Source: Vulcanimicrobiota bacterium
GTDB taxonomy: Bacteria; Vulcanimicrobiota; Xenobia; Xenobiales; JADMJV01
Length of the DNA stretch: 64,000 nucleotides
Assembly (NCBI GenBank): GCA_050250895.1
Contig: JBFWNU010000001.1
Span: forward strand, 2,406,210 to 2,470,209
Direction: 5' to 3'
The position numbers and the translations under genes were made by a program. The notes beneath the pieces are model-generated. The model saw nothing but the letters and a program-made list of their open reading frames with translations. It was not told the DNA's origin and made no database searches. This document shows, piece after piece, positions 403 to 57,672 of the stretch (its first letter is position 1; the number at the start of each line of letters is the position of its first letter).

Positions 403-464
403 CTTTCATGATGTTTCTCCTAGGTAGTGTGTGCGTGATCCGAAGTTGGACGGGGTTTACCAGG

Positions 465-1262
465 CTATTTGGTGACGGGCAGGGATTGGTCGCCGACGCG
501 CACTTCGTCTTGCATCCAATCCAGGTCGACCTGGCTGGTGCTGGCCTGCAGATATTGTTTGAGTTCTTCGGCGCTCAAGCGCCGGCTCAGCAGGCTGTGT
601 AGCGAACCGATGGTGGCACCGTTGCGGTTCTCGACCGCCCAGGTGTGCAACTGGCTCAAGCCCATTTCTGAGTGAGCCGAGAAATATTTGGCCCCCCGAT
701 CGAGCTGGAAGGCCCTGGGCAGATCGCCCAGGTCAGAGTACCTCTGATGGTCCTGGGTGAGTTGCTCGAGAATCTCGCCCCGGGAAACCACGGGTAATGG
801 CGGGGTAGGGTTCTGACCTTCGCGGGCCAGCAAGACGCTGCTGCGCTCGAGGGCGGCGAGGATGGGGGCGCCAGGATCCGACATGTTCATGGTGAACATC
901 GCCACCATGGTAGCGGCCATCACTCCCCCAAGCCCTCCGAAGACGGCGCCGGCTACGAGGCCTCCCAGCACTGGCTGGGCGTTGGCCAGACTGACTCCGA
1001 CTCCTACGACGGTCCCCAGCACTGCCCCGGCCTTGGCCCCACGGCCCAACATCTCCGGCTCACTCCAATATCGAAAAACCTCCGACTTGCGCTGAGCGCC
1101 GTTGTACATGTCGTAGACGGTGTCGCCGCGGACGCCCTGTAGAGTGGCCAGGTCGGTGCTGATAGTGCCGGCCAGAGTTTCGTCGCCCTCGCTGAGGGCT
1201 TTTTGCTGCTGTCTGCGCAGCGCTTCCATCGCCTGGGAGCGAGGCATCGATCCAACTTTCAT
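465..1262 (-). CDS. hypothetical glycine-zipper membrane protein
   Basis: Internal Met of the 349-aa ORF (MKVGSMPRSQAMEALRR...), preceded by 'acaggagaacacag' SD. GxxxG-rich TM segment (GAVLGTVVGVGV...GGLVAGAVFGGLGG). The upstream ORF extension merely translates the tandem DNA repeat. Confidence 0.6.
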   Translation of the reverse strand: MKVGSMPRSQAMEALRRQQQKALSEGDETLAGTISTDLATLQGVRGDTVYDMYNGAQRKSEVFRYWSEPEMLGRGAKAGAVLGTVVGVGVSLANAQPVLGGLVAGAVFGGLGGVMAATMVAMFTMNMSDPGAPILAALERSSVLLAREGQNPTPPLPVVSRGEILEQLTQDHQRYSDLGDLPRAFQLDRGAKYFSAHSEMGLSQLHTWAVENRNGATIGSLHSLLSRRLSAEELKQYLQASTSQVDLDWMQDEVRVGDQSLPVTK

Positions 1263-1354
1263 CTGTGTTCTCCTGTGTGTGTCAGTAGTGAGAAAGCTGG
1301 ACCATGTCAGTGTAGCGGCTGAGGCCGGACTCCGGGTTGCCGGATTGTAAAAAA

Positions 1355-1790
1355 AAGGAGCGCTCGCTGCGCTCGAGGGAACAGGAGCGGCCTGCGGCCG
1401 GGCAAAGGAGCGAACTGAGCTGCGCTCAATTCGGGAGAAGGAGCTCATCGCTGCGCTCGAGGGAACAGGAGCGGCCTTCGGCCGGGCAAAGGAGCGAATT
1501 GAGCTGTCGCTCAATTCGGGAGAAGGAGCTCATCGCTGCGCTCGAGGGAACAGGAGCGGCCTGCGGCCGGGCAAAGGAGCGAACTGAGCTGCGCTCAGTT
1601 CCAGAGCGGCTTCGCCGCTCTTTTCAGCCGCAGGCTGCTCCCTGTCGACGCGCAGCGTCGAAGTCTCCGCGCGAAGCGCACGGCTCCTTCTCCCGACGAC
1701 GCAGTCGGCGCTCCCTGTCGGCCGCAGGCCGACGTCTCCGCGCGAAGCGCCCGGCTCCTTCTCTCGGCGGCGAAGCCGCTGCTCCCCGCT
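1355..1790. repeat. complex intergenic repeat: ~84-bp unit x3 in direct tandem (1355-1606) followed by degenerate inverted copies (1610-1790)
   Basis: Unit 'aaggagc..cgctgcgctcgagggaacaggagcggcctgcggccgggcaaaggagcgaactgagctgcgctcaattcgggag' repeated three times with a few substitutions. 1620-1790 holds reverse-complement-like copies (cgctgcgcgtcgacagggagcagcctgcgg; ctccttctcccg). Confidence 0.8.
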
Positions 1791-5733: not shown

Positions 5734-5851
5734 GGCCAGGGCTTCTCTTTGGCCAGGCCGCGTCCTTTTGAGAGGGCCAAAGGCTCCCTTTCGCGGTGCG
5801 TCGAACTCTAGTGGAGTGGGCGGTTTCTGGGTGTCTCGAATTGGCCTCGGG

Positions 5852-7138
5852 ATGGGGCTGCTGTGGCTGCTCGCCGGTGGCGTTCGGGCTGACGACTGGC
5901 ATTCCGTCGTTTTCGAGAGCAAACCCAACGGGGCCCAGATCGTGGACCTCTACGACAACGAGATTGGCCGCACGGGTGCCCCCTGCCGCTTGAATCTCGA
6001 TAATTTCAGCGAAGTGGTGGACCTCGAACTGCGTGCGCCCGGCTATCGGACTTTCGCCTTCTCGATGCGCAAGAGCAAGTTCTCGAAGGCCGAACGCTTG
6101 CCTGAAGAGGGCGCCTATGTGCTCGAGCCGGTCAGCCCCGGGGCCATGGTCGGGCTCTTCCTGCGGCGCTGGTGGTGGGTCTTGCTGGCCGGGGTGGCGG
6201 GGGCGACCCTGGCCGCGAGACGACATCTGACGGTGCGCGCCCGGGCGCGGCGGGAGCGGGCCCTCGAAACGCTCGAGGCCAGCGCCAACGGTTCTTTGGC
6301 CATGGCTCGGGTGGGAGGCTACGTCGTGGTCGACAAGTTGGGCGTAGGCGGCATGGCCAGCGTTTACCGGGCGGTGCCCGAGAAGGACCCCGAGCGAGGC
6401 CAGCCGGTGGCGATCAAGGTGCTTCACCGAGAGCTTTCCAGTGATCCAGACTATCGCGAACGGTTTTTGAGGGAAGTCAAGATCTGCGCGGGCCTCAACC
6501 ATCCCTCCATCGTGCGGCTGTATGACTGGGGCCAGTTTCAGCATGCGGGTCAGGAGCGGGATTACCTGGTCATGGAGATGGTCGAAGGTTGCTCTTTGCG
6601 CCAGAAGATGGCCTCCGAGGGCTTGCCGGCCAGTGAGGCGATGGCTTTCCTCGAGCCCATCTGCAAAGGGGTGCACTTCGCTAATTCGCGCGGAATTGTG
6701 CATCGCGACTTAAAACCCGAGAACATCATGGTCACCACGGCCGGGCGGGTCAAAGTGATGGACTTTGGTCTGGCCCGCAACCAGAACCTCGACCGCATCA
6801 CCAAGACCGGCGTCACCCTGGGCACCCCCGCCTATATGGCGCCCGAGCAGATTCGCGGTCAGGATCCCGAGGCCACCATCGACCAGTATGCGGTGGGTGT
6901 GCTCGCCTATGAACTGTTCACCGGTCGGCTACCCTTTCAGGACCAGGACCCTATCACGCTGATCTACCGTCATCTTGAAGAGGAGCCGCCGCCGCCTCGA
7001 CAGTTCAAACCAGACCTGGCCGAGAGCCTCAATCAGATCCTCTTGCAGATGCTCGAAAAAGATCCCGAGTTGCGTTTTCGCGACCTGGAGGAAGCCTTGC
7101 GAGCACTGCAGTCGGCAGTGGGGGTCGAAGTTGGTTGA
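5852..7138 (+). CDS. receptor-like Ser/Thr protein kinase (Hanks type): N-terminal signal peptide + PEGA-like extracytoplasmic domain, single TM, C-terminal kinase
   Basis: Signal peptide MGLLWLLAGGVRA; PEGA-like segment SKPNGAQIVDLYDNEIGRTGAPCRL; TM GLFLRRWWWVLLAGVAGATLAA. Kinase motifs: GVGGMASVY, AIK, HRDLKPEN, DFG, APE. Start chosen to leave room for divergent promoters; the 5732 ATG is the alternative. Confidence 0.75.
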   Translation: MGLLWLLAGGVRADDWHSVVFESKPNGAQIVDLYDNEIGRTGAPCRLNLDNFSEVVDLELRAPGYRTFAFSMRKSKFSKAERLPEEGAYVLEPVSPGAMVGLFLRRWWWVLLAGVAGATLAARRHLTVRARARRERALETLEASANGSLAMARVGGYVVVDKLGVGGMASVYRAVPEKDPERGQPVAIKVLHRELSSDPDYRERFLREVKICAGLNHPSIVRLYDWGQFQHAGQERDYLVMEMVEGCSLRQKMASEGLPASEAMAFLEPICKGVHFANSRGIVHRDLKPENIMVTTAGRVKVMDFGLARNQNLDRITKTGVTLGTPAYMAPEQIRGQDPEATIDQYAVGVLAYELFTGRLPFQDQDPITLIYRHLEEEPPPPRQFKPDLAESLNQILLQMLEKDPELRFRDLEEALRALQSAVGVEVG

Positions 7139-7139
7139 G

Positions 7140-8726
7140 ATGGCCGTCACCGACTCGGGCGCTCGTCGTCTTTTCGACAGCGCCTTGCGCTTTCTGGTCG
7201 AGGCCCTGAGAGCCGACCGAGCCCTGGTGCTCTATGGCGAGACCAACCTCGAAGTCAAGGCCGCCCATGGCTTCAATCCCCGCACCGCGCTGGTCGGCGG
7301 CCCCCTGAGCATGGCCTTGCTCGAGCGGGTCCGCAGCAGCGCCGCCCCGCTGATGTTGGCCGACGCCCGTCGAGATAAGACAGTGGGTGACCATTTGAGC
7401 GTTGAACTGTCGGGTCTGCGCTCGGTGGTGTGCGTGCCTTTGCTGGCGCCCCGGGGCGAGGTGGCGGGCCTGCTCTATGGCGACAGCGTCGAGCACAACA
7501 GCCTGTTCGGCAATGAGCAATTGAGCAAACTGGTCGATTTCGCCAGCCGGCTCGAACGGGCTCTCTTTTCGGGGCAGGCTCTCGAGTTGCCGGCCGCCCA
7601 AGCGCCAAAGCGCCGCAAGCGAGTCGAGGTGGCTCCTGCCTCGCCCGCCCAAGAGGTGGCGCGGCCCCTGGCGATGGGTGAGCCGTCCGGACTAGGGCTG
7701 CGCGACTCGAGCAACTTCTTCCGATCGTTGGGGCTGATGGTGCAGACCGGGCTACCGATTCATCGAGGCCTGGCTTTGTTGGCCGAACATCGCGACTTGC
7801 CGGCCCTGGCCGGCGTATCGGGCTTTCTACTCAACGACCTGCTCAAAGGCAAGAGCCTGTCGTCGAGCATGGAGCGACTGCCGGCTAGCTTTGCGCCCTT
7901 TGTGGTCCAGCTGGTTCGAGCGGGTGAGAATTCCGGCTCGCTGCCTCACGTGCTGGCCGCCCTGGCCGCCCACCAGGAGCGCTCGGAGCGGCTCACCCTG
8001 AAGCTTCGCAGCGCTCTCACCTATCCGGCCGCGGTGCTGGGGGTGACGCTAGTCCTGTTGGCGGTGGGCCCGCCTTATCTACTCAAGAGCCAGATTCAGC
8101 TGATTGAGGGTTCGGGGGTGGCCCTCGGTTGGCTGACCCAGGCTCTCATCCTGGCCTCGAAGATCGTGGTCTCGCCACTTTTCTGGGGGGTCGCCGTGGC
8201 CGGGCTGGTGGGGTTGGCGGTGGCCGCCCGGACCGGCTTGCGAAACCCCGACCAGCGGCGGCGTTTGGCCGTGATGGGGCTGAAGGTTCCCTTGCTCGGT
8301 TCAGTGTTGCGGTTGGCCGCCGTCAGCCGCTTCGCCAGCGCCCTATCGCTGCAACTCAAAGCGGGTGTGCTGTTGGCCGATGCCCTCGAACAGGCGGCCC
8401 AGGCGGCTGCTCACCCGCTCTTGCTCGAGCGGATGCCTGTGGTCTTGAGTCGCCTCAAGAACGGGGCCGGTCTGGCCGAATGTCTGGCGGAAGCCCAACT
8501 CTTTCCTCGCTCCTTCCTGGGTATCATCGAAGCGGCCGAGTCCACCGCCAGTGTGCCGGGCATGCTCGATTGGGTTCATCAGCACTACGAACTCGAAATC
8601 GATTCGGGACTATCAGCCCTAACGGCCGCCCTCGAGCCTCTGGTGTTGGGCCTGGTGGGCGGAGTGGTCGGCCTGACGGTGCTGGCCAGCATGGTGCCGG
8701 TGATCAAGATGCTGGAGGTGCTCTAG
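7140..8726 (+). CDS. GAF domain fused to a GspF/PilC-type (T2SS/T4P) inner-membrane platform protein
   Basis: Internal Met (MAVTDSGARR) 2 nt after the kinase stop. N-terminal GAF-like region (LVLYGETNLEVKAAHGF...VCVPLLAPRGEVAGLLYGDS). Two T2SSF repeats (FFRSLGLMVQTGLPIHRGLALL...GENSGSLPHVL; ...IIEAAESTASVPGMLDWV...) and the typical C-terminal TM (LVLGLVGGVVGLTVLASMVPVIKM). Confidence 0.75.
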   Translation: MAVTDSGARRLFDSALRFLVEALRADRALVLYGETNLEVKAAHGFNPRTALVGGPLSMALLERVRSSAAPLMLADARRDKTVGDHLSVELSGLRSVVCVPLLAPRGEVAGLLYGDSVEHNSLFGNEQLSKLVDFASRLERALFSGQALELPAAQAPKRRKRVEVAPASPAQEVARPLAMGEPSGLGLRDSSNFFRSLGLMVQTGLPIHRGLALLAEHRDLPALAGVSGFLLNDLLKGKSLSSSMERLPASFAPFVVQLVRAGENSGSLPHVLAALAAHQERSERLTLKLRSALTYPAAVLGVTLVLLAVGPPYLLKSQIQLIEGSGVALGWLTQALILASKIVVSPLFWGVAVAGLVGLAVAARTGLRNPDQRRRLAVMGLKVPLLGSVLRLAAVSRFASALSLQLKAGVLLADALEQAAQAAAHPLLLERMPVVLSRLKNGAGLAECLAEAQLFPRSFLGIIEAAESTASVPGMLDWVHQHYELEIDSGLSALTAALEPLVLGLVGGVVGLTVLASMVPVIKMLEVL

Positions 8727-10324
8727 TGAAACAGCGCGGCCTCAGTCTGGGCACGGTCATCCTGGTGGTGAGCTTGTTGGCGACCCTGGGGCTGACCCTG
8801 GCCGCCGCCAGCGTTTCTCACCTGCATCTGATGACCCGGGCCAGCAACGCCCGCCGGGCCGAGAGCGTGGCTCGTTCGACGGTGGCTCAGGCGGTCGAAC
8901 ACATCTTGAGTTCCGTCGATCAGCGCTACGGCACCGCCGGGGAGAGCCTCGAGGTAGAGTTTGCCAGTGGGGTCGGTTATCTCAGCTTCGATCCCGACGA
9001 AGCCCGCCGCCACGGACTGCCGCGGAGTTGGAACAACATCGAGTCAAGCACCTCTTTGACCACTCCCGAGTCGGTCGTAGTGCCGGGCGAGTCGATCTAT
9101 CTGGTGGCCAGCGGCACGGTGGGCGGGGTCACCCGGCGGGTCGAAGCCATCTATCACATGGGGTCGTTTCCCTATGCCCTGGCTGCGGCCGGACCCATCG
9201 TGGCCCGGGGCGGGCTGACCGTCTCGGGGCTGGGTGAGAACGACGGTGGCGGCGGCCTGCCACCGCGAATCGAGTTGGCTCCGGCCGATCTGCACTCGAA
9301 TGCGCCCGGAGCCAAAGCCATCGAATTGGGAGCCGACACCCATATCGGGGGAGACGTGCAGGCAGTGGGAGATGTCTTTCTCGATCCGGCCGCGCCGGCG
9401 GACTCGATCGAGATTCAGGGCGAACTGCGCCATCGCGCTTCGGTGGTGGCCCTGCCCGCCTTCGAGCCCGAGCACTACGACCCGTCGGTGCTGGGGCGTA
9501 GCTTCGAGCCTTTCGACGACTCGCCCTATAGCGGCGAACTAGAAGTAGAGGGAGTGGCTCGGGCCAATCACGGCCTCGAGGTCAACGGCGGTCTGAGCCT
9601 GGACTCTGCCCTGTTGTTTGTCGAGGGCGACCTGATCGTCAACGGTCCCCTCAAAGGCAAGGGCATCCTGGTGGTGACCGGCCGGACCGTCATTCGGGGA
9701 GGGGCCGATTTCCAGACCGGCAACAAGCTGGCCCTGATGAGCCAGGGGCCGGTGGAGATTTCGGGCAGCGGTCAGGCGGGCTCGTTCTTCCAGGGGATGA
9801 TTCACACCCACTCGAGCTTTCAAGCCGACCGCATTACCGTGGTCGGCTCGTTGATCGCGGCCGGCAACCAGGCCGATGTGGTCTCGCTGCGCGAAGTCCG
9901 CATCATCCGGCCCGAGGGCTCGGGGGCCGTCGAGGTGGCCCTGGGTGGCGGTACCAATCCCGCCGGTGATGTGGAAGTCAGTGCCAGTGTGGCCATGCCC
10001 GGGGGCTTCAGCCGCTTGCTCACCCTCAGAGGCAGGGTGAGCGGACAGGCCTTTCGCGGAATCTGGCTGGTGGACGGAACACCGGTGCTCGACGAGCCTC
10101 TGCGCATCGACAAACAGTTGGCCGAGACTCTGACCTACTTCATTTCACAGATACCAGAGCTACGCGGGGCCATTCGTCCCCGGGATGCGGCCGACCAGCT
10201 GGCCAATCAACTCATCAACGGAGGCCCCCAAAACACCGGTAATCCGGCCGTCGTGATGGCCGACCCCAGCCGGCTGCTCAGCCCGCTCGAGCGCATGCGG
10301 CTGCTGGTCTGGAGAACCCAATGA
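8726..10324 (+). CDS. PilX-like pseudopilin-related protein (large minor-pilin-like)
   Basis: GTG start overlapping the upstream stop by 1 nt. N-terminus VKQRGLSLGTVILVVSLLATLGLTLAAASV resembles the PilX N-terminal domain (no Glu+5). ~530 aa, Gly-rich beta-type repeats. Confidence 0.65.
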   Translation: MKQRGLSLGTVILVVSLLATLGLTLAAASVSHLHLMTRASNARRAESVARSTVAQAVEHILSSVDQRYGTAGESLEVEFASGVGYLSFDPDEARRHGLPRSWNNIESSTSLTTPESVVVPGESIYLVASGTVGGVTRRVEAIYHMGSFPYALAAAGPIVARGGLTVSGLGENDGGGGLPPRIELAPADLHSNAPGAKAIELGADTHIGGDVQAVGDVFLDPAAPADSIEIQGELRHRASVVALPAFEPEHYDPSVLGRSFEPFDDSPYSGELEVEGVARANHGLEVNGGLSLDSALLFVEGDLIVNGPLKGKGILVVTGRTVIRGGADFQTGNKLALMSQGPVEISGSGQAGSFFQGMIHTHSSFQADRITVVGSLIAAGNQADVVSLREVRIIRPEGSGAVEVALGGGTNPAGDVEVSASVAMPGGFSRLLTLRGRVSGQAFRGIWLVDGTPVLDEPLRIDKQLAETLTYFISQIPELRGAIRPRDAADQLANQLINGGPQNTGNPAVVMADPSRLLSPLERMRLLVWRTQ

Positions 10325-10707
10325 GGCGGCGCGGGCTGAGCTTGATCGAAACGGTGGTGGCGGCCGCCCTGGTCGGACTGGTCGTGCTGCTGGTCACCAA
10401 TCTGTTTCCCCTTTCCCTGACCGGCGTGCGCCAGCAAGAGCAGTATTTGCAGGCGGATCTACTGGCCGGCTCGGTGCTGGCCGATCAGCAGATGGTGCCC
10501 TTCGTGGAGTTGACACCGGGCGACCGCCAGGTGCTCGACCCGGTCGAAGTCGATGGGGTGGCCTATACCGCCACTGTCGAAATCGATAGGGTCTCGGGCA
10601 GCGACCCGGCCTATCTTAAAGCGGTGCGCGTGACCGTGAACTGGCAGTATCAAGCCCAGGCGCGACAGACGGTGGAGGAGGTCTGGGTCGATGCGGTCGG
10701 GCGTTAG
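10321..10707 (+). CDS. prepilin-type N-terminal cleavage/methylation domain pseudopilin (GspI/PilV-like)
   Basis: MRRRG|LSLIETVVAAALVGLVVLLV is a class III signal peptide with Glu at +5. ATGA overlap with the upstream gene. Confidence 0.75.
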   Translation: MRRRGLSLIETVVAAALVGLVVLLVTNLFPLSLTGVRQQEQYLQADLLAGSVLADQQMVPFVELTPGDRQVLDPVEVDGVAYTATVEIDRVSGSDPAYLKAVRVTVNWQYQAQARQTVEEVWVDAVGR

Positions 10708-11293
10708 GGCCTATACCCTGGTCGAGGTGCTGGTGGCAGCCTTTCTCATGAGCCTGTTGCTGACCGTGCTGTTTCAGGTGCTTTTTCCGCTGGTGCGAGC
10801 CTCTCACCGCAGCTACCGGCGCATCTCGATGCAAGAGGTGGGAGGTTTGGCTCTCGACCGCCTGGCCCGCCAGTTCGAGGCCACTCCGGCCGTGGGCGTC
10901 ACCCCGCCTCAGACAACGGCCCAGCAGGTAGTGCTGGCTCTTCATCCCATCGATTCGGTCTCGAGCAGCGGTCGCCAGTTCTATGCCGACCACCTCGAGG
11001 TGTTTCACTGGCGACGCGACAGCGGCCGCCTCATCCATGAAACCTGGACCGAGGCGGGCGTAGACCTCAGTCTCGAGCCACGCCGCCTGACCGCCATCGA
11101 ACTTCAGGCCGTTGTCGACAGCGACAACGGCAGCGAGCGGGTGCTGGCTCATGGAGTGACCAGCTTTGTGGTCGCCGCGGCTGGTAGCGGACCCGGCCTG
11201 GTATTGCCGCTCACGGTGACGCTCAAGCTCGAAGACCAGAGCGACAGGCTCGAACTGAGCCGGCGTCTTTACCTGATGAACTCTAGCCTCTAA
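10691..11293 (+). CDS. prepilin-type pseudopilin (GspJ/PilW-like)
   Basis: MRSGVRA|YTLVEVLVAAFLMSLLLTVLF with Glu at +5 and a hydrophobic helix. 17-nt overlap with the upstream gene. Confidence 0.65.
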   Translation: MRSGVRAYTLVEVLVAAFLMSLLLTVLFQVLFPLVRASHRSYRRISMQEVGGLALDRLARQFEATPAVGVTPPQTTAQQVVLALHPIDSVSSSGRQFYADHLEVFHWRRDSGRLIHETWTEAGVDLSLEPRRLTAIELQAVVDSDNGSERVLAHGVTSFVVAAAGSGPGLVLPLTVTLKLEDQSDRLELSRRLYLMNSSL

Positions 11294-11329: not shown

Positions 11330-14300
11330 ATGACTATGAATGTGCGTCGTCAACCTTTTAGCGTCAACACTGCGCCAGGAGTCACCCTCCAAGGCGAGAT
11401 GACGCTGCCTGCAGACCTCAAGCCGGGCGAGAAGCGTCCTGCCATCGTGCTGGTGGCCGGGTCGGGACCCAACGACCGGGACGAGACGATGCCTTCTGAC
11501 ATCACCGCCTCGGGCCGGCTCGAGAAGCCCTTCAAGACCATCGCCGACACTTTGAGCGACGCCGGCCTGATCGTGGTTCGCTACGACAAGCGCGGGGTCA
11601 ATGGGCCGCAAACCGGCGATACGGCCAATCTCGACCAGGCGCTCTGGCGCAAAACCACCGGCCAGGATTTCATCCAGGACGCTCAGGCGGTGCTCCACCA
11701 GGTGGGCCAGGACCCCAACGTGGCCAGCGTATCGGTGCTCGGCCACAGTGAAGGCACGCTGATAGCCGGGGCTCTGGCGGCCGCTGGCGCGCCCCTGGCC
11801 AGCCTGATCCTGATGGGGCTGGTGGCCCAGCCGTTCGGCCAGGTGGTGGTCCACCAGGTCGAGGGGCAGGAGAAAGCCTTTTTCGACGGTCTGCCGCGCC
11901 AGGCCGACGGCAGCGTGAAGGCCGAAGGCGACCTGGTCGCTCTCGACGCCGACCATAACGGCAAGCTCAGCTGGGACGAGATGCAGGGCACTTTCGCCAA
12001 ATCCATGCAAGAAAAGCTCGAGCAAGGGCCGGCCGACGAACTGTTGGGCAACAAGCCCATCGGCTGGTATCGCTCCTGGCTCGAGGCCCCCTCGAACCTC
12101 GAGCAGATGACCAAAGCCGCTCCCCACCTGGCCCAGGTTCCCATCCTGTTGATGGCCGGCGAGAACGATGTGCAAACCCCGCTGGCCTCAGAGGCGCTGC
12201 CAATGCAGGCCAAGCTGCATTCGCTGGGACTGGTCAGCCAGCTCAAGACCTATCCGGGCCTGGGTCATGTCTTTAGCCCCGACCGCGACGGCACGGCCAC
12301 CTTTGGACCGCTCGACCAGACCTTCGTCGACGATCTCAAGAATTGGGCCGTCAAAACGCTGCTACCCGACAAGCCCCAACCCATCGTGTTCGGGCCGCGC
12401 ACCTACACCTTTACACCGCCGGCCCTGGCCGAATCCGATCTGGCCCAGGCCCGTACTCAGCTAGGAACCACCAAGACCCTGCGTCGGGCCCTGCAGATGC
12501 AGCACAAATTTCTGGCTCGCACTCCCTTTCTCGAGATGCAAGACCAGCAGTTCGAGCCCACCTTGAAATGGCTGCAAGACAATCCATTCACCAAAGAGCT
12601 GCTGGCCCCCACGGCCCAGTTCGCTTTTTCGCTTTATCAGCGGGCCGACCGACTTCCCTATGATTCCAAAGACCAGACCCAAGAGGCCCCCGAGGTGGCT
12701 CGGGCCAGGGCTGACCGGGTTGGTCAACTGGTGGCGGACTGGCATCGCCAGGGTCTGTTTCAGGCCACCCTCGACGGGCAGGCGCTGACCACCGACCAAC
12801 TGGTCGAAACCCTCAAGACCGTCAATCCTGGGCTCGGCCCCGATGGCCTCGAGTTCGTGTCGAGCAAACCCGGAGGTGAGGCCCTCAAGCGCTTCTATCA
12901 CGGTGACACCAAGGCCCGGCGTCGCGAGGTCGACCAGCTCGAGAGTCAGGCCCGCCGCGACCCCAAGACCGGCCTGCGCTTCTTTCGCGAAGCCCGGGAC
13001 TCTTATCTTGCCAACCAGGACACGTCCATCTTTCGCGAGTTCGGCATCTTGCTCGAAGAAGCGTCGTCGCGTCCCGCGCTCTACGCCCAGTTCTCCCAGG
13101 CGGCTCCCGAGATTCTTGAGCTCTACACCGAGTGCGAGCGCTTCGGCCTGGCCGCCCCCGAGATGGCGGTCTCGATGCACGAGGTCAACCGAATTCTCTT
13201 CCCCGTGCCCCTGATGGCCCCAGAGGCTGTCACCGCCGACATGCTCTTGCCTTATTTCATCGGCCCCGACCGTTCCGACCGGGAACGAGCCGCCGATCTG
13301 ATCGAAGCCGTGTGGATGAAGCAGCCCGAGTCGGTAACTGCCAGCATGGACCAGATTATCGAGCATTCGCCGGCTACGCGTTGGGTCGACCATTCGCTGC
13401 TCGGGTCGCATCCCGAGGATGCCCTGCCCTGGGAGCTCGCCCGGGTGGCGGCCCAGCGCCACGGCTGGAAACCCCGCCCCGAACAGCAGGACTGGACGCA
13501 GGCCGTCCAGGCCCTCAAAGTCGAGCGCGATCCCAACCCCGAGCCGCTGGCCAGGGTGCAAGAGGCGATCGCCGCCCGCACCTCCCTTTCGCAGGGCCAG
13601 CTGCTCGAGCTGCATTCCACCCTCGAGCAACTGCGAGCCAACGACAAAGAGGCTGCCTGGCGGGGACACCTTTCGCGCCAGCTCGGCCAGGCCTGCCCCC
13701 TCGAGGATTCAGAAGTGAAGGCGGTCATGGATGGTCTGGCCTGGAGCAAGCTCAGCGACCCGGCCGCCCCGGTCGAACTCAAGGCTCAGTTCACTCTGGT
13801 CGACTCTCAGACCCGAGGCCGTCCGGCCTTGCGCCGTGAGTTTCTTGAGCACCTGGGCGATGGCAAGGTGGTGCTCGACGTCACTCAGCACGACTGGCGC
13901 TCGATGCGCGGCCTGACCGACGAGTGGTTCGAGCACAAGCTCGAGCCGGCCCTGAGGGCCGACAATCCGACCGAACTGGTGCGCCAGGCCGCCCAGTCGA
14001 TGGTGACCCTCAAAGAAGCTCATTCCCACCAGTTCACCATGGTCTACACTCAGATTCAGCGTTACTGGGACGGCAAGCTGGCCGAGCTCGGCATCGACCG
14101 GGGCCTGCTGCGCGCCCACGCCGTCAATGTCAAAGAAGAGATCGCGGTGCTGGCCACCGTGGTAGCCGGTGCTCCCCAGACGGTGACCACGCGTCTGGAG
14201 CAGTACAACCACATGCGCGAGAGTTTGCCCGATCTAAAAACCGAAGAGGCCGACCGGGTCTTCGCCGAGTTGCAGGCTCATCCCGACGGTTTCGACCAGG

Positions 14301-14707
14301 GCCTCAAAGCCACCATCACCGAGGCCGACGTGCGCAAGACGCGGATGATCAAGCTGAAGGCTCGCATCCCCGGCCTGAGCGAGCCGCAGGCCGAGAAGTT
14401 GCTGGAGCAAGCCGTCCATCACCCCGACGGCTGGGACAAAGGCCTCGACGCAGCCGCGGCCGCCGCCGACCAGCGTCGCCAGCACATGTCGCAGTTGCTC
14501 GACCTGATGCCGACCCTTAACCGGCAAAAGGCCGAAGAGATGCTAGACCAGGCCGAGAACCATCCTGACGGCTGGGAGGCCGGCCTGGCTCAGGTTCTGC
14601 GCGGTGAGGTCGTCGGCGCTCCGGCCCAGCCGCCGACCCCGGCCGAGCTGTTGCTGGGCGAAGACTTTCTCAAGATTGGCGACATCGAAATCGGCATCCA
14701 GGACTAG
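11330..14707 (+). CDS. 1125-aa alpha/beta-hydrolase-fold protein with canonical EF-hand loop and long helical C-terminal region carrying three HPDG(F/W)DxGL repeats
   Basis: GHSEG (GxSxG nucleophile elbow); later Asp (GENDVQTP) and His (GLGHVF) candidates. EF-hand loop DADHNGKLSWDE (11944-11979). Repeats AHPDGFDQGL / HHPDGWDKGL / NHPDGWEAGL spaced ~46 aa apart (14270-14600). No N-terminal signal peptide. Confidence 0.7.
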   Translation: MTMNVRRQPFSVNTAPGVTLQGEMTLPADLKPGEKRPAIVLVAGSGPNDRDETMPSDITASGRLEKPFKTIADTLSDAGLIVVRYDKRGVNGPQTGDTANLDQALWRKTTGQDFIQDAQAVLHQVGQDPNVASVSVLGHSEGTLIAGALAAAGAPLASLILMGLVAQPFGQVVVHQVEGQEKAFFDGLPRQADGSVKAEGDLVALDADHNGKLSWDEMQGTFAKSMQEKLEQGPADELLGNKPIGWYRSWLEAPSNLEQMTKAAPHLAQVPILLMAGENDVQTPLASEALPMQAKLHSLGLVSQLKTYPGLGHVFSPDRDGTATFGPLDQTFVDDLKNWAVKTLLPDKPQPIVFGPRTYTFTPPALAESDLAQARTQLGTTKTLRRALQMQHKFLARTPFLEMQDQQFEPTLKWLQDNPFTKELLAPTAQFAFSLYQRADRLPYDSKDQTQEAPEVARARADRVGQLVADWHRQGLFQATLDGQALTTDQLVETLKTVNPGLGPDGLEFVSSKPGGEALKRFYHGDTKARRREVDQLESQARRDPKTGLRFFREARDSYLANQDTSIFREFGILLEEASSRPALYAQFSQAAPEILELYTECERFGLAAPEMAVSMHEVNRILFPVPLMAPEAVTADMLLPYFIGPDRSDRERAADLIEAVWMKQPESVTASMDQIIEHSPATRWVDHSLLGSHPEDALPWELARVAAQRHGWKPRPEQQDWTQAVQALKVERDPNPEPLARVQEAIAARTSLSQGQLLELHSTLEQLRANDKEAAWRGHLSRQLGQACPLEDSEVKAVMDGLAWSKLSDPAAPVELKAQFTLVDSQTRGRPALRREFLEHLGDGKVVLDVTQHDWRSMRGLTDEWFEHKLEPALRADNPTELVRQAAQSMVTLKEAHSHQFTMVYTQIQRYWDGKLAELGIDRGLLRAHAVNVKEEIAVLATVVAGAPQTVTTRLEQYNHMRESLPDLKTEEADRVFAELQAHPDGFDQGLKATITEADVRKTRMIKLKARIPGLSEPQAEKLLEQAVHHPDGWDKGLDAAAAAADQRRQHMSQLLDLMPTLNRQKAEEMLDQAENHPDGWEAGLAQVLRGEVVGAPAQPPTPAELLLGEDFLKIGDIEIGIQD

Positions 14708-14906
14708 CGGTTTTTAGTCTAGTTTCAGGGTCGGTTGGTAGCTTCGCAAACAGAGACCGCTGCCGGTTGAACCACGCCTCTTTTGGTTGCGGTGCAGGGT
14801 GATAGTCCCCTGTGGAAGGCGTGACGATGAAGGTTCAACCGCTGACGAAACAGCAGGCCATCGGTCGCTTGCAGGCCGAAGAAGCCGCTTTTTGCAAGCC
14901 AATCAA

Positions 14907-15797
14907 ATGCCCGAGGCCACCGCCATCATCGAGGCCCGCGAGACGCTCGAGCGCGGCCGCGGCGACAATCTTTGGGAGATCTATAGCCAGGCCCGTCAGG
15001 ACGAGGCTCGGTGGCAGCGAGTCAAGGCCGTGGTCTTGCCGCGCGAGCAGACGGGCCGCGAACAGGCCAGGACCTTTCTCGCTCTAACCGGCGCCGGACT
15101 GGCTCTGGGGGGCATCGGCAACTTTGTGGCCATCGGCGATCCCCGTCATGCCCTGGTGTCCACGGCGCTCTGTGGAGTGATGGTGCTGGCTGACGGCATG
15201 GTCATGGCCCTCTCCGACGATTTCAAGACCGATTTCAGCCGCACCCTGGGAGCCTTCAACGCTACCACCGCCTGCGTCGGTCTAGCCACGAACCATTGGG
15301 TCTCGGGAATCGCCGCCGGGGGCGCGACCCTGGCGGTGGCGATCGCCGTTGCGAGCCTGGGCCACTTTCAGGCTGGTAAACATCGCCAGATTCAGGCTGT
15401 GGTCACCGACCATCGGCAGCTCTTCGCGGCGCCCCCCAGCGCCTCGGCCCAACTCGCTTCGGCCATCACCAAGAACGACATCCTCGAGACCGTCACCAAG
15501 CGCAGCCAGCGAGCGATCGAGGAGGGCGACTACGCCAGCGCCATGGACGCTCGCGAGGACCTCCAGCGATTGACCGACCTCAAGGGAGACACCTTTCACG
15601 AGATGTTCCTGGCCAGTCGCGGCCTCGAGCGGGACCGAGAGCTGCTGACCCGATATGCCGAGGCGATCCTCGAGGATGCGCGCAGTCGCGACGACATCAA
15701 GGCTATCGTTGCCGGCGAGCCGTCGGTGGCCCAGCTTTTGATTGGCGACGACGCTGTCGACGTCGGCGACCAGCACTTGCCGGTCGTGTCCAGTTAG
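14907..15797 (+). CDS. hypothetical membrane protein
   Basis: Internal Met (MPEATAIIE) of the 336-aa ORF. Two or three predicted TM segments (LALTGAGLALGGIGNFVAI; GGATLAVAIAVASLG). Start uncertain. Confidence 0.4.
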   Translation: MPEATAIIEARETLERGRGDNLWEIYSQARQDEARWQRVKAVVLPREQTGREQARTFLALTGAGLALGGIGNFVAIGDPRHALVSTALCGVMVLADGMVMALSDDFKTDFSRTLGAFNATTACVGLATNHWVSGIAAGGATLAVAIAVASLGHFQAGKHRQIQAVVTDHRQLFAAPPSASAQLASAITKNDILETVTKRSQRAIEEGDYASAMDAREDLQRLTDLKGDTFHEMFLASRGLERDRELLTRYAEAILEDARSRDDIKAIVAGEPSVAQLLIGDDAVDVGDQHLPVVSS

Positions 15798-15831: not shown

Positions 15832-16377
15832 TTAGTAAACCGGGTGGTAGAGCATGGCCACCGCTCCCGAGTCGAACTCGACCTGGTCGACCAGTTGCAG
15901 GTCGACCAGTTTCGAGAGCCCGGCCAAGAGGTAGGGACCGTGGCCGGCCAGTCTAGGTTGCACCACGAATTCGTACTCGTCGATCAAACCGAGTTCGGCC
16001 AGGGCCAGGGGAAGCTGGACACCTCCGGTCAAGAGTCCTCGACCGGGTTGTTGCTTGAGTCGGGTAACCGCCTTCGCCAGGTCGCCCTGGAGCAGTTCGG
16101 CGTTCCAGTCGACCTCGGTCAAAGTGCTAGAAACGACATATTTCTTGGCCGCCTCGATGGTGTGGGCGAAAGGCTCGGTCCAGGCGGGCATCGCTTGGGA
16201 CCGGGGCGAGCGAAAGGCCGTCTCCATCATTTCGTAGGTCACTCGGCCGTAGAGCAGGGCCTCGGCGCGTTCAATATTGGCGGTGTGGAAGCGATGCAAT
16301 TGCTCGTCGGGCACGCCGACCCGGTGATCGCAGCAGCCGTCTAAAGTGACATTGATGCAGTAGCGAAGAGGTTGCAT
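15832..16377 (-). CDS. dihydrofolate reductase-like protein (RibD C-terminal domain family)
   Basis: Internal Met (MQPLRYCINVTLDGCCDHRVG...) of the 202-aa ORF. Pattern ...LYGRVTYEMM...KKYVVSSTL...GGVQLPLALAELGLIDEYEFVVQPRLAG is typical of the RibD_C/DHFR-like family. Confidence 0.65.
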   Translation of the reverse strand: MQPLRYCINVTLDGCCDHRVGVPDEQLHRFHTANIERAEALLYGRVTYEMMETAFRSPRSQAMPAWTEPFAHTIEAAKKYVVSSTLTEVDWNAELLQGDLAKAVTRLKQQPGRGLLTGGVQLPLALAELGLIDEYEFVVQPRLAGHGPYLLAGLSKLVDLQLVDQVEFDSGAVAMLYHPVY

Positions 16378-16418
16378 GGCGCCGCGACTTCGCGACCTGC
16401 TATGGACGACCCCTGCCC

Positions 16419-16434
16419 GGTGATCGGTGTCACG
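16419..16434. promoter_or_regulatory. CRP/FNR-like palindromic site GGTGA-N6-TCACG, conserved upstream of cassette copies A and C
   Basis: ggtgatcggtgtcacg matches the TGTGA-N6-TCACA architecture at 4/5 + 4/5. An identical 16-mer occurs at 24228-24243. Confidence 0.4.
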
Positions 16435-16603
16435 CGGCAAAAGGAGTAGAGATAGCTACATGTCGCAGTCTAGATGTACCATTGGTTCGCAGAACGTGTA
16501 TTTTGTTGGTTGTATGGGTGTCCAAAGTTTGAAAAATAGTAAACAGAGGTTTTGTGTGGGGGGTAAAGAAGCACTGGGTTCGAGCATCCTTGGGGAGGTG
16601 GTC

Positions 16604-19600: not shown

Positions 19601-19705
19601 GAGCATTGGGGTGAACCGGTCCTTTTCGACGTTAGGAGGCCAAAAGATGCACAACTTGTACTCGAAGTGGTGCGACACAACGATGGGACGGTGGAATTGC
19701 GATGA
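16604..19705 (+). CDS. large secreted lipoprotein (cassette A gene 1) with FlgD-Ig-like domain
   Basis: TTG start 5 nt after GGAGG. Lipoprotein signal MVRASRFFLLLLGLLLVGC (lipobox LVGC). FlgD-Ig-like block IRDINIDPNPFEPSP...YVLVEPRIYDQAGNLVKTFEDQYP...ELEWDGYDDEGNPLDPQEF. About 1033 aa; the start is inferred from conservation with copy C. Confidence 0.65.
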   Translation: MVRASRFFLLLLGLLLVGCESGQLVDEIERGQSRPISHRNRVLAELTLQTENGPYKLVKGRGLIPAENSPVPQPRTGDGVRARTGESILAATELPPEYFFGAHYQFDVDKRNFFIGEEPVGTACVRYNSEEFNNLPHSSEAYRFGNLEFASLGVAVGPNQFPGTASTTMVVSTPAGIEEIEIPKMDGDTITVSPPITVRMDYAYTPIPNSSLYYGRTETFVNGNSVAISSSNFTIGVSVELPSVHGIYTTENHAERQTYANAPFQLQDSFDVGSQVFARKLEFADDFTPMEFTPGQPVTITNSFRWDSGPTDVVDARWEVIVEDTLENQFTRFQEGTGTDISATFDLSDVLARGQVPRRYVLIPAGSPLEASIKQEQARLRARGEDIRAQTDVIPLTYRVIASAEAYPRSRVFPLVGSQFYQARYYAVNSQISPALRIRDINIDPNPFEPSPPEVAPEDRQVAVISAYVDANGFDGGYVLVEPRIYDQAGNLVKTFEDQYPIDYVELEWDGYDDEGNPLDPQEFLVELQAHVCDFSGPAREILAEIAPQTLQLGSCSLTGDVAQAPLVTGGAQGGELKVYAINKLIAWGKNPTSAIVTRAQEGFLRDVYAAGPTAPGDPQPAKLKLEASNLGPVGGDVTVVARGNVSQVDSVAVTLTDDDHDGTYTGELLLTPDFIKVGGPLTDVQGEAGRMTFSVGERLNNEGGVTAAIFANLLSALGPEFYPYPKPAISLGKFEEDLLGSQLTLANDDEATATANNLASTGFEALTLTLRVGSDVVVTTKAKVRHPADVLFWNFHGLRHGSLSPESEIAKRENRLPTILLTPEDFVVKPVARTVMFAACDVLCLNDYNGAWPNESNFGGRRWYAAMDTPGHNTVLLGFTAQTGATLTTSEVIELYGKRIDDYIAAGETDRRKIQALAWVRANLEVGLNLQADGSTGPVDALRSLQLRACAYAADSTGEYFYYIPVQHRPTQDLALVLQNVETTPVVKTAEGIYRVRREHWGEPVLFDVRRPKDAQLVLEVVRHNDGTVELR

Positions 19706-21555: not shown

Positions 21556-21597
21556 AAGCCCGAGCAACCCTGACAGGGCTCGAACAAGCCCTCGCAG

Positions 21598-27341: not shown

Positions 27342-27349
27342 GAGGATAC

Positions 27350-55697: not shown

Positions 55698-55752
55698 TTT
55701 CAGGCTGCCGTCTTAGATTAGGACCGTGGTCATCAAGGCGGGTTATACACCC

Positions 55753-57672
55753 ATGCGGTTCGCCCCCGCTCACGCCGCTCCGTCCACCACGGTGCAACAG
55801 TTGAGCCATGGCCAGAGCGTGCCCGAACACCCGCGGCTGCTGCAGGGGCTCAAGCGGATGGCCAGCGTGCTGGGCGACGCCAACCAGGCGTGTGGCTACC
55901 TCGACCAGATTCTAGAAAGTTCGACCCAGCCCGAGCAAACGGTGGACCGCTACGTCGACCTGCTCAAGGTCAGCGACGCCCGCGACCCCAGGACCCTGGC
56001 CACCGTGTTGTTGGCCCTCGAGCATCGGGCTAATCCAGATGGGGTCAAAGCCTTTCGAACCTTGCTCAAGGGCAGCGAACTGCCCGTGGCCGACGCCTAC
56101 ACCCACCACTGCTGGCTGGAAGAGACCTATGACCAGCAGGCCCGCGACCGGGCCCTGAAGCTGAGCGTCAAAGTGGCCGACATGGCCCCCACCAGCAGTC
56201 TCAAGCCGGCCGTCGAATGGCTGATGGCCCAGCCAGAGCCCGAGCGGGCTATCGCCGAGTTGGTGCGGCTGGGCAAGCTGGGCCTGACCTTCGACCAGGC
56301 CCTGGGCGACCTGCAAGCCGTGGGTGAGCCGACCAGGAAGGATTATGCGGTGCTCGAGCAGATTCGCCGGGAAGTGCCCACGGAGGACAGCTCGGTTCGC
56401 CAGGCCGTGAGCCTGCTGCGAGACAACCAGGCTTTGACCCCCACCTACTTGCGGCTGCTCGACTATCAAGATTCGGCCCTCGAGGCCAATACCGTACTGA
56501 CCACGCTATGCCACTATCCCGAGGCCGACCCCGGCCCGCTGCTCGAACTGCTGGCCGACGCCAGTCCCCGCCAGCGGCGCGAAGTCTATGAAGCGTTCGT
56601 CTCGGTGGCCCAGTTGCCGCAGCCCGCCTCGAAGGGGTGGTTGCTCGACAAGTTGGGCTTCGGCATCAGCAATGAAGAGGCTTTTCGCGACCTGACCCGG
56701 ATGCACCAGTCGCCCCAGATGGCTCTCGAGGACCTCAAGGTGCTGACCTCGGATCCGGCTCAAAGCTTGGGCGACGGACTGGGGCTTCTCAAAGACCTCT
56801 ACATGGTCGACCAGCCCGACTCGGCCTCTTGCGCTCGCGAGGCCTTTGCCTATCTGCGCCAGGCTGACAACCGTAAGCATCTGGGTCTGGTCAAGAAGAT
56901 GGCTAGCGACCTGAGCAGCCTCAGACTGGCGGCCCGGGCGGTAGAGGGGCTCACCGCCGACAAGCCCGCCCGCTCGGCCCTACGCGACCGCCTCGATGCC
57001 TTTTATGCTCGCCTGCAGAGCAGTTCTTCGCCGGGCGCAGCCGTCAACTGGACCCTGGCCGAGGGGCGCTGCCTGGCGGCCGGGTTCACCTCCGAACAGT
57101 TCGAGCGACTGGCCCGCAAGGGCAGCGGCGACTTCCTCATGGTGCTGGCCGAGGGGGCGGCCAACCTGGGCAAACTGCTGGGCGACCAGCGCGAAGGCCT
57201 GGCCGAAGTGCTGGGTCTGTGCACCAACCCATCCCAATTGAACTCGGTCACCAGCTATCTCGAGGCCGGGGCCGGGCCGTTGCGGCTCAAGATCGTCGAC
57301 CGCCTCAGCCGAGCCTTCGGCAGCCTGGACAAGGCCCTCGAAGATTGTAGCAGTCTGGCCACGCGGTTTGACGGTAAGAATGAAGTGGCCGATGCCTATT
57401 CCCAGCTGGCCACCGTCCTGCCGGCGGGGTCGCGCGATAAGCTGCGCGAGCATCTGGAGTGGGCCGTCTCGCAAAACGAGAAACCTCGTTACAAGCGCAT
57501 CCCTCCCGAACGATTCCTGATGGAGCTTGGGAAGGCACTGTTGCTCGACCCCGATACCGAAAAGGCCCGCCAGATCGTGATGAGCGCACTCGAGCCTGAA
57601 CTTGGCCTGATCGACGAAGAAGACTATCTGGTGGTGGGAGATTTCATGGTGGAGAAACACAATGAGCGTTAG
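55753..57672 (+). CDS. large hypothetical helical protein
   Basis: About 640 aa, Leu/Ala/Glu-rich, no recognisable motif. Coupled to the three downstream small membrane paralogs. Confidence 0.5.
   Translation: MRFAPAHAAPSTTVQQLSHGQSVPEHPRLLQGLKRMASVLGDANQACGYLDQILESSTQPEQTVDRYVDLLKVSDARDPRTLATVLLALEHRANPDGVKAFRTLLKGSELPVADAYTHHCWLEETYDQQARDRALKLSVKVADMAPTSSLKPAVEWLMAQPEPERAIAELVRLGKLGLTFDQALGDLQAVGEPTRKDYAVLEQIRREVPTEDSSVRQAVSLLRDNQALTPTYLRLLDYQDSALEANTVLTTLCHYPEADPGPLLELLADASPRQRREVYEAFVSVAQLPQPASKGWLLDKLGFGISNEEAFRDLTRMHQSPQMALEDLKVLTSDPAQSLGDGLGLLKDLYMVDQPDSASCAREAFAYLRQADNRKHLGLVKKMASDLSSLRLAARAVEGLTADKPARSALRDRLDAFYARLQSSSSPGAAVNWTLAEGRCLAAGFTSEQFERLARKGSGDFLMVLAEGAANLGKLLGDQREGLAEVLGLCTNPSQLNSVTSYLEAGAGPLRLKIVDRLSRAFGSLDKALEDCSSLATRFDGKNEVADAYSQLATVLPAGSRDKLREHLEWAVSQNEKPRYKRIPPERFLMELGKALLLDPDTEKARQIVMSALEPELGLIDEEDYLVVGDFMVEKHNER

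Follow-up and report, generated by a model that had tools for sequence, protein, structure and literature searches.

Why should a bacterial esterase be fused to some 780 further residues, and which of the two parts does selection maintain? The question is raised by a single gene in a 64,000-nucleotide stretch of the genome of an uncultured Vulcanimicrobiota (Eremiobacterota) bacterium (GenBank assembly GCA_050250895.1, contig JBFWNU010000001.1, positions 2,406,210 to 2,470,209 of the forward strand), hereafter the window. An earlier note, written from the sequence alone, had described the gene product as an alpha/beta hydrolase with an inserted EF-hand and a C-terminal triple repeat. The open reading frame (ORF) of 1125 aa exists as claimed there, and the GHSEG, GENDVQTP and GLGHVF motifs, the EF-hand loop and the HPDG motifs are all present in it. 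From its N to its C terminus the protein consists of a hydrolase head, a linker, a carrier of ~780 aa, three 47-aa units and a 21-aa tail, the units and the tail lying within the last part of the carrier region (Table 1). Taken alone, the esterase head is ordinary, a new member of a known fold; what is new here is its EF-hand lid, its fusion to an undescribed carrier, the 47-aa repeat and a tail shared with other proteins.

A rare carrier family with an optional esterase head

The carrier (aa 346-1125) found no credible match in Pfam, NCBIfam, PHROG, PADLOC or a PDB profile search. A profile of aa 345-1125 built from four close homologs matched only seven proteins among 1.84 billion representatives, namely the protein itself, P0006 (1069 aa), P0007 (827 aa) and, weakly, P0008-P0011 (841-1264 aa), and a further profile search of homologous proteins added only P0012 (770 aa). 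Among GTDB species representatives a single locus, L004, carries a P0007-like gene, and there were no relatives in IMG/VR or in two JGI metagenome contig scans. The family comprises the window protein, P0002-P0004 and P0006-P0012, all of which share the C-terminal tail and a core (W..G, VW…P..V.PTMD, HGW.P..EQ) whose fuller signatures are ELLAPTAQ.A..LYRRA, WHRQG.F, RP.L.AQF, VWM..PE.V..TMD and RHGWKP.PEQ. Two possible affiliations were set aside: the best PDB match, to FtsQ (E = 0.023 over 75 residues), was treated as chance, and a phage or defence origin is unsupported by the PHROG, PADLOC and IMG/VR results.

Within this family the hydrolase comes and goes. Six homologs (P0007-P0012) have no hydrolase domain, and P0006 has one that is catalytically dead, its nucleophile Ser having been replaced by Gly (LAHGEG, compared with LGHSEG around aa 138-142 of the window protein). 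Two further parts of the head, the GSGPNDRDE loop and the lid that bears the EF-hand, are gone from P0006, which keeps four HPDGW units and the tail, and both are deleted in P0004 as well. Because the head is missing in six homologs and dead in P0006, we conclude, reading function from the observed distribution, that the carrier holds the conserved function and that the esterase is an optional accessory head. A description that starts from the hydrolase and adds the repeat as a C-terminal appendage therefore inverts the evolutionary logic, since it is the C-terminal 780 aa that are conserved and the head that is optional and sometimes dead. The carrier family is so rare that it escaped all domain libraries, and the tolerated loss or death of the head suggests that selection acts on the function of the C-terminal part.

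The carrier alignment contains no invariant His, Asp, Cys or Ser. The carrier is acidic and is predicted to be all-helical in a full-length AlphaFold2 model, which we used for secondary structure only; built from four sequences, this model reached a predicted local distance difference test score (pLDDT) of 55 and a predicted template-modelling score (pTM) of 0.32, too poor for a fold search.

The head is a probable esterase or lipase of known fold

The assignment of the N-terminal domain to the alpha/beta hydrolases, checked with Pfam profile hidden Markov models (HMMs), held up: Hydrolase_4 (40.2 bits, cut-off 27; 3e-10) and Peptidase_S9 (30.1 bits, cut-off 22.6; 4e-7) both scored above their cut-offs. 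The NCBIfam equivalog EstD (NF041096) matched at 1e-21 over profile positions 146-287 only, and because its 77.3 bits compare with a curated cut-off of 600 we rejected orthology; the head is related to EstD and nothing closer. A PDB sequence search matched the lipase 6khk and Lactobacillus cinnamoyl esterases, and of the 8000 candidates scored in a search with aa 3-345, 2016 were relatives at E < 1e-5.

In an alignment of 68 sequences, Ser140, Asp280, His313 and the elbow glycines are invariant. In the PDB search GHSEG lines up with the nucleophile elbow GHS(W/Q)G of two solved chains, 6khk and 3pf8. The AlphaFold2 model of the head made from this alignment (pLDDT 84.3, pTM 0.85) retrieved many solved alpha/beta hydrolases with Foldseek at a probability of 1.00 and E = 6e-17 to 1e-12, the best folds being 7qjm, PET46 8b4u, TTL 7q4j, 8skm and 3pf9. 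The invariant triad, the confident model and the fold matches to esterases and lipases together make the Ser, Asp and His candidates of the earlier note the correct ones. The near-invariant GSGPNDRDE loop sits at the usual place of the oxyanion hole in alpha/beta hydrolases and may serve as such. Judged by sequence, the head thus bears all the hallmarks of an active serine carboxyl-esterase or lipase. Its fold neighbors (chlorogenic, cinnamoyl and feruloyl esterases, lipases, polyesterases and monoglyceride lipases) would give a range for the substrate rather than a substrate.

An EF-hand loop in the lid marks an exported hydrolase subfamily

The helical lid of the head contains a loop, DADHNGKLSWDEM, that fits PROSITE PS00018, with oxygen ligands at positions 1/3/5/9/12, Gly at 6 and a hydrophobic residue at 8. 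It had been reported within the hydrolase domain, where it does lie, at nucleotides 11944-11979, one base off. A PS00018 match arose in 0.4% of 20,000 shuffles of the 1125-aa protein, and no second match turned up when all ORFs of 100 aa or more in the six frames of the window were searched (59,269 aa). In the head model the lid helices span residues 167-184, 199-204, 213-230 and 243-265 (model numbering; add 2 for ORF numbering), and the loop is predicted to lie between the second and third of these, with the exit helix starting from loop position 10, as is canonical.

The EF-hand is no peculiarity of this protein: the nearest stand-alone relatives carry such loops too, and it is a trait of a small subfamily of exported hydrolases. 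The homologous loop is kept in P0002, P0003, P0013, P0015, P0016 and P0031, and across seven aligned lids from four lineages D1 and E12 are invariant. P0013 has the loops IDKNKDSFVTEDEV and LDTNKDTKISQAEL, P0015 has IDTNHDELLSIEEV and DTDEDGYLSIQEE, P0016 has DPNGDGALDIDKE, and P0031, from Deinococcus sp. D7000, has DTNGDGQIDLRGE. Each of these four stand-alone relatives examined (4/4) carries a Sec or lipoprotein signal peptide, which indicates that the EF-hand-lid subfamily normally works outside the cytoplasm. Most of the wider hydrolase family has a plain helical lid, as in 465-aa proteins annotated from Bacteroidota metagenome-assembled genomes (MAGs). Within the carrier family, P0004 lacks lid residues 170-258 and P0006 lacks the matching lid segment, loop included, and both keep the rest of the protein despite this loss. 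As the earlier note proposed, Ca2+ may plausibly regulate the activity of the head. A literature search on EF-hand lids in esterases found nothing relevant. Small and uncharacterized as it is, the subfamily would offer a simple natural design for a Ca2+-switched lid, and among its fold neighbors are polyesterases and feruloyl esterases, enzymes of biotechnological interest.

The window protein itself has no export signal of the usual kinds, as the earlier note had said. Its residues 3-27 form two core beta-strands (pLDDT > 90) rather than a signal peptide; no Sec or Tat signal, no transmembrane segment and no hydrophobic stretch besides the buried core were found, and the net charge is -41. 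Export by the Tat route was rejected, the RR at positions 6-7 not being conserved in homologs. Judging by its homologs, which open with MNV or MKI, translation probably starts at Met3 (nt 11336). An identical database protein, 'MAG: alpha/beta hydrolase family protein [Vulcanimicrobiota bacterium]', was called 23 residues shorter, at 1102 aa, and with this later start the two conserved beta-strands would be lost.

HPDGW repeats of variable copy number

Three repeats near the C terminus had been noticed before, with a period of about 46 aa and the HPDG motif at the start of each; the three units are there, but their period is 47 aa, HPDG lies mid-unit, and together they cover aa 962-1102 (nt 14213-14635). 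The motif is found at aa 984, 1031 and 1078, a spacing of exactly 47 and 47, and three such occurrences arose in none of 20,000 shuffles of the protein. The consensus, L...LP.L...QAE.L...A..HPDGW..GL, is predicted to form a helix, a turn at HPDGW and a long helix. The repeats went undetected in a self-BLAST (E up to 1), since they are defined by motif and exact spacing and not by overall similarity.

Homologs were examined for these units, and they are conserved there in one to four copies, so that they are not lineage-specific noise: the window protein, P0002, P0003 and P0004 have three, P0006 has four and P0007 has one clear copy. The segment DLPKEQAEKLVTDAWAQGGLAGL of P0009, aligned at the repeat position, reads like a degenerate copy. 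A profile of 13 units matched nothing in PDB or Pfam, and a likeness to MT0933_antitox, seen in one unit only (E = 0.002), was treated as noise. We can only suggest that the HPDGW repeat is an undescribed binding module whose copy number varies.

A C-terminal tail shared by unrelated proteins

Every member of the carrier family, even at 17-24% identity, ends in a tail of the form (E/D)D-x-h-x-(I/V)-G-(D/S/G)-h-x-h-(P)-h, examples being ...LQIGDIEVVVQD, ...VRIGSVSLPIRP, ...VRVGSVRVPLRG, ...VTIGGIELPVQG and ...LRVGSVRVPIKK. The tail is not confined to the family. In the window it ends two small proteins whose hydrophobic segments are Gly-rich, one encoded directly downstream and the other weakly similar to that neighbor, and, more weakly, a 648-aa protein (Table 1). 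At the P0012 locus, L003, it is found on two beta-propeller proteins of the pyrroloquinoline quinone (PQQ) type (...FVQVGGIRLKSRG, and ...VVVGGIRVKKR followed by ~30 residues) and on another small protein whose hydrophobic segments are Gly-rich (...VRVGGVFIRGR...). No signal peptide is evident in any of the unrelated tail-bearing proteins, whether of the window or of L003.

When 174,619 aa of six-frame ORFs were searched with an HMM made from 13 tails, 12 hits scored 17.9 bits or more and the next best 5.9 bits; none of the 12 lies further than 22 aa from a stop codon. Matches to a regular expression written for the tail were 22-fold enriched in the last 25 aa of ORFs. No library model fits the tails: searched against Pfam at E up to 10, the tails and the N-termini found no match. 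They may bear some resemblance to AbrB/SpoVT hairpins, the beta2-beta3 hairpin of CsrA, the N-terminus of FlgM and encapsulin targeting peptides.

Many tail-bearing proteins also begin with M-x-(I/V/F) and then, 20-35 residues in, show a segment of the form 'V-D/Q-x-V-x-L-S/G' (AAVDSVELSG, GPVDRVELRR, LQKVELS and TTVQQLSHG are examples). We observed it in P0008, P0009, P0010 and P0012, in the products of 253-1857 (-) and 16171-17196 (-) of L003, and in that of 55726-57672 of the window. This segment may resemble the N-terminal half of FlgM; Pfam gave it no match at E up to 10.

What the tail may do

The reading that we tentatively favor makes the tail a tag for docking or export, places the action of the esterase outside the cytoplasm and has Ca2+ stabilize or open the lid. 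We infer this because the hydrolase subfamily is otherwise exported and because the tail marks proteins without signal peptides. The carrier and tail would then be the constant, selected part and the hydrolase an exchangeable payload; the tail would bring unrelated proteins that lack Sec signals to a common partner, probably outside the cytoplasm, and the esterase head would act at the site of that partner. Only in places rich in free Ca2+ would the ion, bound to the EF-hand, stabilize the lid or open it, and the exported hydrolase relatives presumably use the same loops likewise. If the tail is a sorting, export or assembly tag, it would provide a handle on the machinery and, by a simple genome scan, on the substrate set in a poorly studied phylum.

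Several points weigh against this reading. The argument for export draws only on the signal peptides of relatives and the distribution of the tail, and no secretion or receptor system able to read the tail was found among the large window ORFs, a Pfam scan of ~30 of which yielded no genes for a type I secretion system (T1SS), a secretin, an encapsulin or a type III secretion system (T3SS). Some tail-bearing proteins have hydrophobic, possibly membrane-spanning segments, and this suits docking or oligomerization as well as export. The tail statistics are in part circular, both the HMM and the regular expression having been derived from the tails that they then recover. With a full-length model of so low a pLDDT the carrier gets no structural reading, and the family is so small that covariation and profile methods cannot help. 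As to calcium, the EF-hand region of the model has a pLDDT of only 57-65, the Pfam models EF-hand_5 and EF-hand_1 score 11.8 and 11.5 bits against cut-offs of ~25, and the partner (first) loop is degenerate in the window lineage, where a 5-aa deletion has left it without ligands.

Several of the same observations would suit a cytoplasmic scaffolded esterase, a possible but somewhat doubtful alternative in which the protein stays inside the cell, the tail is an oligomerization or docking element (a foldon-like hairpin or strand complementation) that ties several proteins, the adjacent small one among them, into a membrane-associated complex, and the EF-hand is structural. The lack of a signal peptide and of detected secretion genes would then be expected, as would a carrier without invariant residues of catalytic type, and the tail does occur on proteins with hydrophobic segments, one of which adjoins the hydrolase gene in two genomes. 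That adjacency is lost in L002, however, and every one of the nearest hydrolases that share the EF-hand lid is exported; in a bacterial cytoplasm, where free Ca2+ is expected to be low, such loops would do little. The tail-bearing PQQ-type propellers without signal peptides also speak against a cytoplasmic scaffold, since BamB-like propellers often carry signal peptides.

A bolder form of the docking or export reading, which we regard as rather unlikely, is that the 21-aa hairpin, accompanied in some proteins by an N-terminal 'M-x-(I/V)…V-x-x-L-S' segment, is a previously undescribed, lineage-restricted sorting or secretion tag on a sizeable set of Sec-independent proteins in Eremiobacterota-like genomes. 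The tagged set may in that case include enzymes, beta-propellers and small proteins with hydrophobic, possibly membrane-spanning segments, the 1125-aa protein being one cargo in which an exchangeable esterase head sits on a dedicated carrier with HPDGW repeats. At least three to four tail-bearing genes lie in the 64-kb window and four in a 22-kb stretch of L003; a literature search on secretion in Eremiobacterota found nothing relevant. If this were true, the receptor of the tag would define a new protein-targeting pathway.

Genomic context and the less probable alternatives

The gene follows a platform-protein gene, a 731-aa ORF and two pseudopilin genes on the same strand, separated from the last pseudopilin by a 37-nt gap in which no terminator was detected. 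By position it does terminate a pseudopilin operon, as first proposed, but the linkage is kept only in the closest homologous locus. In L005, where the hydrolase homolog is 81% identical, the order pseudopilin, pseudopilin, hydrolase, small tail-bearing protein is retained; in L001 (60% identity) it is lost, and in L002 (52%) it is lost together with the adjacency to the small neighbor. The upstream neighbor in L002 has GxSxG-type and DGG motifs, which may resemble those of patatin-like lipases. A homologous operon in L003 (T2SSF protein 32%, large second protein 26% and pseudopilin 26% identical; the C-terminal part of the 731-aa ORF resembles this second protein) ends differently: its last gene, 253-1857 (-), encodes 535 aa with a 'PVDRVEL' segment near the N terminus, a single hydrophobic stretch and a metalloprotease domain of the M48 (LoiP-like) type. 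Operons of this T2SSF/pseudopilin type thus close with different enzymes in different genomes. Because the order is lost in L001 and L002 and the L003 operon ends in another enzyme, the link to the pseudopilins is positional and recent.

This context bears on an improbable alternative, that the protein, encoded last after a T2SSF platform gene and three pseudopilin-like genes, is a pseudopilus-associated analog of PilY1 that rides on the pseudopilus or is presented by it, its tail hairpin docking on the pseudopilin tip complex. PilY1 binds calcium, exceeds 1,000 aa and has its gene behind those of the minor pilins, and the close spacing behind the last pseudopilin, the order kept in L005 and an L003 operon that likewise ends in a large enzyme, with the family member P0012 ~4 kb away, all fit such a role. 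The loss of synteny at 60% and 52% identity tells against it, and no PilY1/PilC or von Willebrand factor A (vWA) domain was found at Pfam E up to 1. The other tail-bearing genes, moreover, are scattered and do not lie beside pilin genes, and the protein lacks a signal peptide although partners of a pseudopilus are expected to meet it beyond the inner membrane.

Very improbable is a type I secretion substrate built like the repeats-in-toxin (RTX) lipases and proteases, from an enzyme, repeats and an uncleaved C-terminal signal. The domain order, the missing N-terminal signal, an acidic composition and a Ca2+ site would all suit such a substrate, but GGxGxDxUx nonapeptides are absent, the repeats being 47-aa helical hairpins, and the window ORFs scanned include no ATP-binding cassette (ABC), membrane fusion protein (MFP), HlyD or TolC genes. 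Typical type I signals differ from the tail, which is a conserved sequence motif and also ends proteins whose segments are hydrophobic and possibly membrane-spanning. Least probable of all is cargo of a protein compartment, loaded by the tail much as C-terminal L-x-(I/V)-G-S-L peptides load the cargo of family 1 encapsulins: the tail does stand at the extreme C terminus of unrelated proteins, and its core h-x-(I/V)-G-(S/D/G)-h (VRIGSV, VRVGSV) may resemble encapsulin targeting peptides, but no library model matched the tails, neither the ~30 large window ORFs nor the precomputed Pfam annotations of L003 gave a Linocin_M18 or HK97-type match, the tail also ends proteins with hydrophobic, possibly membrane-spanning segments, and 1125 aa is unusually large for such cargo. 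The pseudopilus, type I and encapsulin readings rank below both the favored docking or export reading and the cytoplasmic scaffold, and each fails at least one defining feature.

Table 1 Coordinates of the protein's features and of neighboring or tail-bearing genes. Nucleotide positions are those of the window, except in the last row, where they are those of locus L003.
Feature	Nucleotides	Strand	Residues (aa)	Evidence and remarks
Whole ORF	11330..14707	+	1-1125	Coordinates take in the stop codon
Shine-Dalgarno-like site GGTGAG	in the 37-nt gap to the upstream gene	+		
Alpha/beta-hydrolase domain, serine esterase/lipase type	11336..12364	+	3-345	Pfam, NCBIfam, PDB, AlphaFold2, Foldseek
GSGPNDRDE loop after strand beta3, family signature	11459..11485	+	44-52	Near-invariant in 68 relatives
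Nucleophile elbow GHSEG, Ser140	11741..11755	+	138-142	G, S, E and G invariant in 68 sequences
Lid/cap insertion, helical	11822..12115	+	~165-262	AlphaFold2 helices, pLDDT 50-76
EF-hand loop DADHNGKLSWDE	11945..11980	+	206-217	PS00018 match; ligand positions 1, 3, 5, 9, 12 = D, D, N, S, E
GENDVQTP, catalytic Asp280	12158..12181	+	277-284	D invariant in 68 sequences
GLGHVF, catalytic His313	12257..12274	+	310-315	H invariant in 68 sequences
Pro-rich linker between head and carrier, LPDKPQPIVFGPRTYTFTPPAL	12362..12427	+	345-366	pLDDT < 50, no secondary structure
Conserved core of the carrier	12521..13510	+	~398-727	Sole part matched in the distant P0007-P0011 (profile positions 54-383)
Second helical stretch	13511..14212	+	728-961	Conserved among close homologs only
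Repeat unit 1, HPDGFDQGL	14213..14353	+	962-1008	
Repeat unit 2, HPDGWDKGL	14354..14494	+	1009-1055	
Repeat unit 3, HPDGWEAGL	14495..14635	+	1056-1102	
C-terminal tail AELLLGEDFLKIGDIEIGIQD, predicted beta-hairpin	14642..14704	+	1105-1125	AlphaFold2 strands 1113-1116 and 1119-1122, low confidence
Upstream GAF-T2SSF platform gene, 731-aa ORF and two pseudopilins	6975..11293	+		Pfam T2SSF 8e-41, GAF, N_methyl
Pseudopilins	10321-10707 and 10691-11293	+		
Downstream neighbor, small, Gly-rich hydrophobic segments	14787..15797	+		Tail ...LLIGDDAVDVGDQHLPVVSS / ...VDVGDQHLPVVSS; true start uncertain
Small protein, 24% identity to the downstream neighbor	465..1514	-		Tail ...DEVRVGDQSLPVTK / ...VRVGDQSLPVTK
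648-aa protein, no family match	55726..57672	+		Tail-like end ...EEDYLVVGDFMVEKHNER / ...LVVGDFMVEKHNER; weaker, 1.3 bits in the tail HMM
L003 tail-bearing proteins unrelated to the carrier	7522-8832, 16171-17196, 20381-21619	-		

Other observations in the window and related loci

The start of the downstream neighbor deserves a remark. Its ortholog in L005 begins MKVQPLTKQQAIGRLQAEEARCLQANKMPEATA, and the MKVQPL... start in the window lies in another frame than the rest of the gene. The frame shifts within 14827-14910, near a T run at about 14888-14892, which points to a frameshift or sequencing error, or else to a shorter start at MPEATA.

Upstream, 6975-8726 (+) encodes a platform protein of the type II secretion system/type IV pilus kind with an N-terminal GAF domain, which looks unusual, and it overlaps and directly follows a Ser/Thr kinase ORF (5732-7138). 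A GAF segment similar to that of 6975-8726 is found near the carrier-family gene in L004 (CAYRFU010000028.1, 'uncultured Burkholderiales bacterium'), where the P0007-like gene is accompanied by a homolog of window 2959-4071 (27% identity). The Burkholderiales label may reflect an error of binning or classification, or gene transfer.

Repeated paralogous cassettes, with a large protein (1092 aa) followed by a second protein, occupy 16427-21555, 22327-24078 and 24428-29212. In the second proteins a TPR-like segment at the N terminus precedes a C-terminal half whose sequence is near-identical in 19702-21555, 22327-24078 and 27293-29212; in the two copies scored, this half reached 33.5 and 32.2 bits against DNRLRE, just under the cut-off of 34. 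In its second copy the large protein is broken up into three ORFs, 24428-25465, 25486-26637 and 26634-27341, possibly a pseudogene or the result of assembly errors. Lastly, 33834-35003 (+) matches MATCAP (microtubule-associated tyrosine carboxypeptidase, PF08014) at 1.5e-50 and adjoins an M24 metallopeptidase gene (35601-37187, -).

Comparison with known systems

The tail invites comparison with known C-terminal tag systems, such as encapsulin cargo peptides, type I signals and the C-terminal domains of the type IX secretion system (T9SS), which likewise place a short conserved sequence at the extreme C terminus of unrelated proteins that lack N-terminal signals. It differs from them in its motif, in matching none of the library models and in having no cognate machinery nearby. 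PilY1/PilC proteins resemble the 1125-aa protein in being large, in being encoded behind (pseudo)pilin genes and in having an EF-hand-like Ca2+ site. The 1125-aa protein, for its part, lacks a propeller or vWA domain and a signal peptide, its Ca2+ loop lies in a hydrolase lid, its C-terminal region is predicted to be all-helical, and its synteny is not kept.

With canonical EF-hands (PS00018; PF00036, PF13202) the protein shares the 12-residue loop, the ligands, Gly 6, the hydrophobic residue at 8 and flanking helices that are predicted only at low model confidence. The canonical EF-hand is a paired four-helix domain, whereas here a single good loop lies inside an enzyme lid and scores far below the Pfam threshold.

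As an enzyme, the head belongs with known lid-bearing carboxylesterases of the Hydrolase_4/S33 and Peptidase_S9 clan (the Lactobacillus cinnamoyl, feruloyl and chlorogenic esterases 3pf8, 7xrh and 8skm, the lipase TTL 7q4j, PET46 8b4u, the Chloroflexus hydrolase 7qjm and the Thermotoga EstD-like NF041096). It has their fold, with Ser, Asp and His in the same order, a GxSxG elbow and a lid that is likewise inserted after the central sheet. The head departs from them in its low identity to solved structures (16-21%) and in the EF-hand loop of its lid, and the 780-aa extension is found in none of them. Closest are the stand-alone EF-hand-lid hydrolases P0013 (37% identity), P0015, P0016 and P0031, enzymes of 374-455 aa with signal peptides that belong to the same subfamily and have the loop in the same place with D1 and E12 kept. 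Compared with these, of which P0013 and P0015 have two good loops, the 1125-aa protein carries one good loop, dispenses with the signal peptide and adds the carrier.

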